A program made the translations under genes and the position numbers. Below are positions 52,075 to 56,274 of a stretch of 64,000 nt of DNA, piece by piece (position 1 is the first letter of the stretch; every line of letters begins with the position of its first letter). The stretch is taken from positions 4,448,001 through 4,512,000 of the forward strand of contig OY762007.1 in the NCBI GenBank assembly GCA_963665115.1, in the 5' to 3' direction. A model generated the notes under the pieces. That model was not told where the DNA came from and did no database searches. It saw only the letters and a list, made by a program, of their open reading frames with translations. This DNA comes from an uncultured Rivularia sp. (GTDB lineage: Bacteria > Cyanobacteriota > Cyanobacteriia > Cyanobacteriales > Nostocaceae).

Positions 52075-52379
52075 GGATCTATAAATAGTAAATTTTTTTG
52101 AAGTTCTCTTCCTAAAGCATCATGAATCGTGGTCGTATTTCTACAGGTAGCACATTCAGACGCTGTTTTGCCAGCTAACCAAGGAGGCTCATCAACCTTA
52201 ATGGTAAAAACCTCCTTAACTGCTTCGAGTGTAGATTTTACAGGAGCTTTCGCTCGAAATACAGCCCTGTTGGACAAGGGATGTAGCAAAGAGGGATAAC
52301 TGACAAAATAACAGCTATGAGGGGTGCGCTTGCGGCTTTTTGCCGGTAGAAAATTTGGCAATTTCATTGATTGCGACTG

Positions 52380-52712
52380 GTCACTGACTCAACCCTTAAG
52401 GGATTGAGCTTGCAAAGAACAAACTTTGCAACGCAAGCAGCGACTAGCCCAGTGAGCCTAATCTCGGTAAACACTTCCGAATGCTTCCCCAGTTCGGACA
52501 CATTGTAAGACTATTTGTTTAGTCGTTGGGTAAAGCCAAGTCATCTTAGATTAGGTGGGCGAGGGGACTATTACGGGTTTGCTGATTCCTGGGATTATAT
52601 CCATTTAAAAATCAGCCCTTCAAAACACAAAGTCCACGGCAAATAAATTTGCTCGTGTCGCTTCCCTCCCAGGGCTAAAACCTGAGAGTTTCTCGCTTTC
52701 CGCGTGTTTCTT
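52380..52712 (+). ncRNA. IscB-type omegaRNA/HEARO RNA within an ORF-less IS200/IS605 mini-element
   Basis: GTCA start, terminal hairpins, GACTAGCCC, CACTTCCGAATGCTTCCCCAGTTCGGA and GGGCGAGGGGAC blocks with mutually consistent pairings. Confidence 0.75.
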
Positions 52713-53609
52713 ATGACTACAAAGCTGATTTTATATCCCAACATAAAGCTATGGATGGCGGCAATTAAACCGCCAATGTATTGCGTTGCGATTATGCCGA
52801 TTTGGGTAGGAACTGCTGTGGCTTTTGCAGAAACAAAAGTGCTTCATGCAGGAGTTTTTTGCACGTTTTTAGCTGCTGCCATTTTGATTCTCGCTTGGGA
52901 AAATTTGAGCAATGATGTGTTCGATTCCGATACGGGAATTGATATTAATAAACATCATTCTTTAGTAAATTTGACGGGCAATAGACAATTAATTTTTTGG
53001 CTGGGAAATTGCTTTCTAAGTCTGGGATTGCTGGGAATACTAGCAATTAGTTGGTGGCAACAAGACTTAACTTTAATTGGAATAATTTTACTGTGTTGCG
53101 GTTTAGGATATCTTTATCAAGGACCTCCTTTCCGTTTAGGCTATCAAGGATTAGGGGAAATACTTTGCTTTTTCGCCTTTGGTCCTTTGGGAGTAGCAGC
53201 AGGATATTACAGTCAAACTCAAAGTTGGTCTTTAACGAGTTTGGCGGCTTCGTTAATCGTTGGTATTGCCACAACTTTGATATTATTTTGTTCCCACTTT
53301 CATCAAGTAAAAGACGATTTAGCAGCAGGAAAACTTTCGCCAATTGTTCGTTTGGGAACTCAGAAAGGTTCTTATGTTTTAAACTGGTTAACTGGCAGTA
53401 TTTACGCGCTGATATTGATATTTATACTTTGCGGAATTTTTCCCTTATGGACGCTTTTAAGCTGGTTTAGTTTACCTTTTGCTGCAAAACTATGTAACCA
53501 CGTCGCGCAAAATCACAACCAACCCCTTAAGGTAGATAACTCCAAATTTATTGCGATCGCAGTTCAATTTTGGTCTTGTTTGCTATTAGGATTGGGGTTT
53601 GTTTTATGA
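52713..53609 (+). CDS. menA: DHNA phytyltransferase
   Basis: WMAAIKPPMY, NLSNDVFD..TGID, YQGPPFRLGYQGLGE, DDLAAGK. Confidence 0.95.
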   Translation: MTTKLILYPNIKLWMAAIKPPMYCVAIMPIWVGTAVAFAETKVLHAGVFCTFLAAAILILAWENLSNDVFDSDTGIDINKHHSLVNLTGNRQLIFWLGNCFLSLGLLGILAISWWQQDLTLIGIILLCCGLGYLYQGPPFRLGYQGLGEILCFFAFGPLGVAAGYYSQTQSWSLTSLAASLIVGIATTLILFCSHFHQVKDDLAAGKLSPIVRLGTQKGSYVLNWLTGSIYALILIFILCGIFPLWTLLSWFSLPFAAKLCNHVAQNHNQPLKVDNSKFIAIAVQFWSCLLLGLGFVL

Positions 53610-53821
53610 GCCAGGGAGTTGGGAGTAGTGAGTAGTGAGTAGTGAGTTAGGAGTTGTAAAAGGTAATGGGTAATGGGCAATAGGTAATGGGTAATGGGTA
53701 AATTTGGGATGCTCCCGGTAAATATCTCAAAGAAATAACGATTAATCTTCTTACCTCTCCTTTTCTCCTTGTCACCTTGTTTTCCCCCTCTTCCCTTCTC
53801 TTTCTCGATTCAAAAATAAAT

Positions 53822-54814: not shown

Positions 54815-56274
54815 ATAATGACTGTTTAATTTGCGAAGATAGTCATTTATTAACTGAGTTAATCGAAAAATTTGATTTAGATATTATTAAGTTCAAACAA
54901 GAGTATTCTTATTTACCGAAAATTATTTTAAACGAACGTCGATCGGTATATTTTTTAGCTAGTTTTATTGCAGCTTGTAAAGCAAATTGCCCCGTTTTTT
55001 TATGCAATCCCGATTGGGGAAAACAAGAATGGCAGCAAGTATTTGATTTAGTCAAACCAGATATTCCCAATCCCCAATCCCCAATCCCCAATCCCCCATC
55101 CCCAATCCCCAATCCCCAATCCCCACACATCATGATTCCTACGGGTGGATCGTCGGGTAAAATAAAATTCGCCGTTCATACTTGGGATACTTTGGCGGCT
55201 TCGGTAAAAGGATTTCAAGAATATTTTGCAGTTAATAAAATTAATTCTTTCTGTGTTTTGCCGCTGTATCATGTTAGCGGTTTAATGCAGTTTATGCGCT
55301 GTTTTCTAACTGGTGGAAAGTTAGTTAATTTACCTTTTAAAAAGCTTGAATTAGGTCAAGTAGATAATTTTGAAAACTTAATTGATAATATTGATTTTTT
55401 TATATCTTTAGTTCCTACTCAATTAGAACGTTTATTGCAAAAACCAGATTTAACTCAATGGCTGAGTAAATTCCAAACTGTACTTTTAGGAGGTGCCCCT
55501 GCTTGGGATGAATTATTACATAAAGCCAGATTTCATCGTATCAGAGTAGCCCCCACCTACGGAATGACAGAAACAGCTTCTCAAATTGCGACTATGAAAC
55601 CAGAAGATTTTTTAATAGGTAAAGTTGGTTGCGGTAAAGTTCTTCCTCATGCAACAGTACAAATTCGCGGCGAAAAAGGAAAGAATTTACAAATTAATCG
55701 TGTCGGAAGTATCAATATTCAAGCCGAATCATTAGCTCTTGGTTATTATCCTCTTAGTGGTGCAACACAAACTTGTTTGCAAATAGATGATTTAGCTTTT
55801 TTAGACGAACAAGGTTATCTAAACATTGTCGGCAGAAATAGCGACAAAATAATTACTGGTGGAGAAAACGTTTATCCCGCAGAAGTTGAAGCTGCAATTA
55901 GAGCAACCGGGATGGTGGCTGATGTTTGTGTAATTGGTATAGCCAATCGAGATTGGGGACAAGTTGTAACGGCTATTTATGTAGAAAAATCAGATGTTGA
56001 TTATCAAGTGGGCAAGATGTCCGCAATACGGCAAGATAAAGACGAAATAATACCAATTCAAGCTTTACTTAAGCAGAGAATAAGTAACTATAAAATTCCT
56101 AAAAATTGGATTTGTGTTGAGTCGTTACCTCGTAATTCTCAAGGTAAAATTAATCGGCAAAAGCTTTATGATATTGCTATGGAATGGGAAGAATTGTCCG
56201 CACAATCGCCCTCACCCTCGAAGGGTGGGGCTATCGGGGACAAAGCCCCACCTGCGTGGGCTGAATCGAGATGA
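54787..56274 (+). CDS. menE: o-succinylbenzoate-CoA ligase carrying repeat-derived insertions
   Basis: PTGGSSGKIK, YGMTET, GGENVYPAEVE, PRNSQGK. Confidence 0.93.
   Translation: MEEYFTYFVNNDCLICEDSHLLTELIEKFDLDIIKFKQEYSYLPKIILNERRSVYFLASFIAACKANCPVFLCNPDWGKQEWQQVFDLVKPDIPNPQSPIPNPPSPIPNPQSPHIMIPTGGSSGKIKFAVHTWDTLAASVKGFQEYFAVNKINSFCVLPLYHVSGLMQFMRCFLTGGKLVNLPFKKLELGQVDNFENLIDNIDFFISLVPTQLERLLQKPDLTQWLSKFQTVLLGGAPAWDELLHKARFHRIRVAPTYGMTETASQIATMKPEDFLIGKVGCGKVLPHATVQIRGEKGKNLQINRVGSINIQAESLALGYYPLSGATQTCLQIDDLAFLDEQGYLNIVGRNSDKIITGGENVYPAEVEAAIRATGMVADVCVIGIANRDWGQVVTAIYVEKSDVDYQVGKMSAIRQDKDEIIPIQALLKQRISNYKIPKNWICVESLPRNSQGKINRQKLYDIAMEWEELSAQSPSPSKGGAIGDKAPPAWAESR

Follow-up and report, generated by a model that had tools for sequence, protein, structure and literature searches.

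The window, by which we mean the whole 64,000-nucleotide stretch analysed (G000:C1:4448001-4512000), lies on a single contig of an uncultured Rivularia genome of 99.9% completeness. Between menA and the divergent menF it carries a gene-less element that begins with GTCA at 52380 and ends with TTCTT at 52712, so that the menA ATG at 52713 follows directly (Table 1). A sequence-only reading had proposed a 333 bp element with these limits, and the coordinates proved exact.

Table 1 Features at the menA locus, in window coordinates
Feature	Position	Strand	Remarks
Gene-less element, whole	52380..52712	+	333 bp, without target duplication
Host menA 5' leader	52360..52379	+	Would supply the omegaRNA guide; adjoins ATGA in empty alleles
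ATGA	52713..52716	+	Serves as target of the insertion and as start codon of menA; predicted TAM; N|ATGA target in PMC4810608
menA	52713..53609	+	Open, 298 aa; TIGR02235, E 1e-120; followed by menC and menE
menF	52074-50653	divergent from menA	Profile match, as for menC and menE
Candidate transposase end	52380..52412	-	Terminal TGAC; hairpin 52388-52408; putative DNA guide CAAG at 52412-52409
Other candidate transposase end	52666..52712	-	Hairpin 52666-52688; putative DNA guide GAAA at 52692-52689
IsrB-type omegaRNA scaffold (predicted)	52380..52574	+	HEARO match, covariation, pairs kept, likeness to isrB loci
Pseudoknots, two (predicted)	52418-23 with 52514-19; 52486-90 with 52563-67	+	Covarying
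3' hairpin common to the gene-less family	52581..52616	+	Encloses a GGATTAT word like that preceding the isrB start codon

Comparison with related genomes identifies the segment as an insertion. The search took in 24 congeners; a menA match was obtained in 22, and in 21 its start was present. The segment is absent at menA in all 21, and its left end was found in none of them. The exact empty junction of 11+6 bases that had been predicted is present in 11 of the 21, and the distance from menF to the menA start, 638 in the window, is 299-309 in 20 congeners and 477 in one. In G020 (L021) the spacer between menF and menA exceeds that of the other congeners by some 170 bases, and the ATG junction there is normal. 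In contigs of sequencing runs X8 and X11, exactly 333 bases are missing at 52379/52713; X4 carries the element, with seven differences in 1.5 kb, none of them inside it. Splicing was considered for the skip in X11, an RNA library, and rejected: the flanks of that contig differ by 45 letters, which identifies it as the empty allele of another strain. A further X11 contig of 181 bases, approximately 90% like 52380-52557, may represent a sister RNA, although contigs cannot show expression. The filled menA junction was not found in 26 other genomes of the genus, and full-length copies of 321-330 bp occur at different loci in other genomes. We conclude that this is a recent and exact insertion that made no target duplication, and only one lineage has the menA copy.

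Judged by their sequence, both ends fit a TnpA guide rule extrapolated from the guide/cleavage pairs of IS608 (AAAG/TTAC and GAAT/TCAA; PMC5934647). On the minus strand, a tetranucleotide sits at the 5' base of each hairpin: GAAA for the target TCAT and CAAG for the terminal TGAC. The end at 52380..52412 was assigned from its sequence, its DNA fold and this extrapolated rule; at 52666-52712 the minus-strand fold is the better one (-7.7 vs -5.4 kcal/mol). Right ends gathered using queries without the ATG yielded 91 matches, 89 of them with NTGA, which gave 70 sites after merging and splitting. Across these sites guide and target covary, with GTTT accompanying ATGA at 62, GCTTC accompanying GTGA at five and other combinations at three; in some relatives (L334, L337 and L390) the guide word is not matched. 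The same right end is found on IS605 elements encoding TnpA (L109, L110 and L121) or TnpB only (L078 and L117), the comparison with TnpA-encoding elements covering the right end. Like IS200/IS605 PATEs, the element lacks a protein gene, has subterminal hairpins with guides at both ends, and is inserted precisely beside a tetranucleotide that was not duplicated. In two other loci (L047 and L138) an outward AAGGAG word lies at the right end before the host ATG; the window copy has none. According to excerpts of Kapitonov et al. 2016 (PMC4810608), ISC1 (IsrB) transposons share with the element a 5'-GTCA end, insertion just before ATGA without duplication and a 3' end held in common with IS605/IS605B, and both ISC1-1_MA of Microcystis aeruginosa and IS605B-1_MA use an N|ATGA target. 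The role proposed for ATGA as target and TAM is supported, the TAM being predicted. Unlike the ISC1 transposons, the element has an extra 3' hairpin and no isrB gene; with no isrB gene in cis, it is an ISC1 derivative rather than an ISC1 element.

The first part of the element resembles an omegaRNA. The covariance search that had been suggested matched the full HEARO model (Rfam RF02033) to 52380-52574 with an E value of 6.7e-8, but the 44.8 bits lie below the gathering cut-off of 83, and there is no HNH ORF; at gathering threshold a tRNA is the sole Rfam match in the window. A match to STnc560 (E 3.1) was dismissed, and no group I intron, the mark of an IStron, was found among intron families at E up to 10. 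From 14 gene-less copies we built a structure of 69 pairs, an RNAalifold consensus to which two pseudoknots were added by eye. In these copies 97.3% of cells are paired and 31 of the 69 pairs show two-sided change, figures that favour the structure because it was partly derived from the sequences tested; none of 500 shuffles scored as high, and slid controls reached 28-46%. All 69 pairs are kept in the window copy, whose scaffold is intact. The earlier proposal of a non-autonomous OMEGA mini-element is supported. The pseudoknots are paired in 100% of cells, with two-sided change in 5/6 and 1/5 pairs. The stems listed in the sequence-only reading, including its TCCCC/GGGGA pseudoknot, are present and covary in the 14 family members, but GCTTGC/GCAAGC overlaps the TTGCAAAG/CTTTGCAA hairpin and so cannot enclose it as described, and the pairing of 52418-23 with 52514-19 had been missed. 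When the element is folded by itself, its stability is no more than modest (z -2.05; 3 of 100 shuffles equal it); the structural evidence is the covariation.

Downstream of this scaffold lies the 3' hairpin (52581-52616), which we found in 32 distinct copies, with two of seven outer pairs changed on both sides. We considered 52576-52606 as a possible isrB C-terminus; the same stretch also resembles the isrB start region. In the DtIsrB omegaRNA, as excerpts of Hirano et al. 2022 (PMC9581776) describe it, there are adaptor and nexus pseudoknots and a 3' hairpin that holds the isrB Shine-Dalgarno sequence and binds protein. Two pseudoknots, an NTGA TAM and a 3' hairpin are points of likeness, the helix correspondence being inferred and unaligned, and the scaffold of the element is the shorter one (approximately 190 nt plus hairpin vs 262 nt for DtIsrB). 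By analogy, the 3' hairpin of the mini-elements may substitute for the protein-binding one of IsrB RNA. The compact scaffold may find use in IsrB engineering.

Comparison of the core (52440-52570) with loci encoding candidate effectors points to IsrB. With most isrB-bearing loci the core gives alignments of 107-129 bases, in which up to 105/128 positions are identical; scores were 75-129 in 14 of 21 such loci (best 129) and at most 50 in the other seven. All five iscB loci scored 19-25, which is background, and here too the HEARO/IscB (ISC2) family is not indicated, the gathering score being unreached. Since the proteins linked to the matching loci have RRXRR without HNH, the scaffold is of IsrB type, and the earlier choice of IscB as partner is not upheld. 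A tblastn search found no intact isrB in G000, only a frameshifted, truncated copy at 847k and a C-terminal piece at 5756k. The latter belongs to an internally deleted element with the same left end (C1:5756761-5756370, minus strand), which stops before an ATGG opening a membrane-protein ORF. Two tnpA frames in G000 are open, 49-55% identical to the cognate type. In G006, G012, G022 and G041 a close mini-element and a full-length isrB occur in the same genome. With no intact isrB in G000, the menA copy is probably partnerless there today and likely a passenger in the menA leader. The influence on menA-menC-menE expression suggested earlier is a mere possibility. Four runs mapped to an isrB element did not cover the gene continuously, a hole that proves nothing. 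A second HEARO match above the cut-off (86.8 bits; L032, G000:C1:8469659-8469896, minus strand) has no adjacent RRXRR gene.

As had been suggested, the 5' flank would serve as guide in this model, with an inferred length of approximately 16-20 nt taken from the menA leader. No other exact 12-nt target with NTGA was found in G000, and no second target matched beyond 11 nt. A promoter scan gave one site against 1.1 expected, and the predicted accessibility of the menA start is 0.59 in the filled and 0.48 in the empty allele, which is uninformative.

The position at menA is one instance of a wider pattern. For the count of start codons the window's own site was dropped, L048 and L065 were taken as one site, and L086 was scored as non-start because its homologue is distant. 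At 28 of the 62 ATGA sites, a set that includes a few non-omegaRNA elements, the same Met is where the homologue in G000 begins. A crude gene call of G000 supplied the nulls, which would give 3-5% for all ATGA, 12-17% for non-disruptive sites and 24-32% for sites in sense context; the excess has p values from 2e-25 to 0.02, the last under the strictest, sense-context null. Of the 37 sites that coincide with a same-strand start or lie no more than 150 bases from one, 28 are the start itself, where 50-54% would be expected (p 0.001-0.006). One mini-element (L130) instead interrupts a conserved gene at an internal Met, with a frame of 630 aa remaining downstream.

Cargo separates elements that share this end type. 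We mechanically scored an ATGA site as opening a long ORF if its ATG begins at least 74 codons; this applies to 33 of 56 omegaRNA-bearing sites and to 8 of 44 controls (p 4e-5). The controls came from 160 loci, in 54 of which the end was recognised, less two without NTGA, two that were too short and one duplicate; a further five are GTGA sites. The taxa represented in the control set are not those of the test set. A first control run had given 2/26, and the widened run of 8/44 shows a weaker TnpB contrast. TnpA-bearing elements open a long ORF at 2 of 28 sites, far below the omegaRNA elements (p 4e-6) and at the null rate; a choice of start codons by the transposase itself is therefore unlikely. 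For TnpB-only elements the figure is 6 of 16, which is slightly above the null (p 0.03-0.05) and does not differ from that of omegaRNA elements (p 0.16). Start-codon use differs about eightfold between elements of one end type with different cargo. The bias therefore likely arises after insertion, reflecting the survival of copies rather than their landing place.

From these observations we regard it as probable that an IS200/IS605 mini-element, derived from IsrB elements and devoid of genes, was recently and exactly inserted at the menA ATGA, likely by a borrowed TnpA, and that copies of its kind persist at starts after insertion. TnpA supplied in trans most likely inserted it, leaving menA open, and TnpA could insert such elements at any ATGA. 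Copies at start codons would then have better survival, since they leave reading frames unbroken and have a host promoter above them. Transcription from the menA promoter would produce an RNA joining leader guide and scaffold; bound by IsrB, which nicks one DNA strand (excerpts of PMC9581776), this RNA would nick the site emptied by excision and so favour restoration of the element. Two things would be required for the scaffold to act as a nicking guide: transcription from the menA promoter, and binding by an IsrB, which G000 no longer encodes intact. More tentatively, gene-less IsrB mini-elements might be self-standing guide-RNA parasites of host mRNA leaders, persisting at start codons because the host leader would be guide and the host promoter their promoter; their own 3' hairpin would replace the IsrB-binding one, and IsrB in trans would restore them after excision. 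If so, the mRNAs of working genes would double as guide-RNA precursors.

A simpler reading, which we think unlikely yet take seriously, is that these are inert PATEs tolerated at starts where a short insert spares the frame, that guide RNA plays no part, and that elements bearing TnpA are purged from these sites, since tnpA would then be driven by host transcription. This reading agrees with the orientation of tnpA, toward the ATGA end and along the host gene, with the TnpB-only frequency, with the absence of intact IsrB from G000 and with an older family member with decayed 5' half (G000:C1:3528071-3528194, common to G001, G003 and G007) that still abuts the ATG of a gene we take to be ndhA-like. 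The TnpB-only frequency fits either cause, the need of a 5' guide for a host promoter or tolerance with purging of tnpA read-through; as the TnpB guide needs no host promoter, the requirement for a guide is not the whole cause. Against tolerance as a full account, disruptive sites were already excluded from the null, and gene-less copies retain the scaffold with its two pseudoknots, though perhaps by inheritance from their parents.

That the transposase targets start codons directly, or that the element was domesticated as a regulatory leader of menA, appears improbable. Three elements with different right ends (L071, L129 and L131) occupy one start codon, presumably of an rplS-like ribosomal-protein gene and a possible hot spot of insertion, and same-site copies persist across species at genes we assume to be chlB-like and others; but TnpA-bearing elements with the same end stay at the null rate, a single lineage has the menA copy, and a Shine-Dalgarno word is lacking at its end and present in only 6 of 68 ends. 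The earlier proposal that the RNA guides an IscB to cut element-free menA alleles is very improbable here, although the sole intact effector in G000 is a 433-aa IscB with HNH (C1:8173k) and excerpts of PMC9581776 mention stand-alone omegaRNAs working with IscB, because a HEARO-type RNA of its own (89 bits) accompanies this IscB, and the window core scores at background against it and gives no BLAST match.

The reading of an IsrB-derived mini-element retained after insertion builds on published observations, since the literature already describes the N|ATGA target, a co-orientation bias and omegaRNA elements without genes. In the excerpted text of Meers et al. (bioRxiv 10.1101/2023.03.14.532601), upstream co-orientation is reported for iscB and not tnpB, and is attributed to the need of a 5' guide for a host promoter; PATEs with omegaRNA are also described. 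Their PATE-like ISGst minis of Geobacillus stearothermophilus are likewise gene-less, with transposon ends, an omegaRNA acted on in trans and a host-flank guide, but retention was tested there with TnpB, whereas the RNA here is IsrB-type. Restorative homing is listed for TnpB and IscB, not IsrB, in a review (PMC13565253). The exact start-codon position is not described in the excerpts of Meers et al., the term 'start codon' has no occurrence in the main text of PMC4810608, the excerpts of PMC5027513 hold no start-codon statement, and a literature search by title and start of abstract, with subscription papers and supplements outside its scope, found no exact start-codon landing or enrichment. 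The control comparing cargo among elements of one end type is new here. The element offers a natural test of whether an IsrB nickase keeps a transposon in place, and the set as a whole a test of whether co-orientation bias stems from insertion or retention; it also illustrates how functioning genes can carry mobile DNA directly in front of them.

Beyond the element, the window contains tandem short heptamer repeats in the gap between menA and menC (53610-53700) and inside menE (54900-55130, PQSPIPN-type). Such tandem heptamer repeats are typical of filamentous cyanobacteria.
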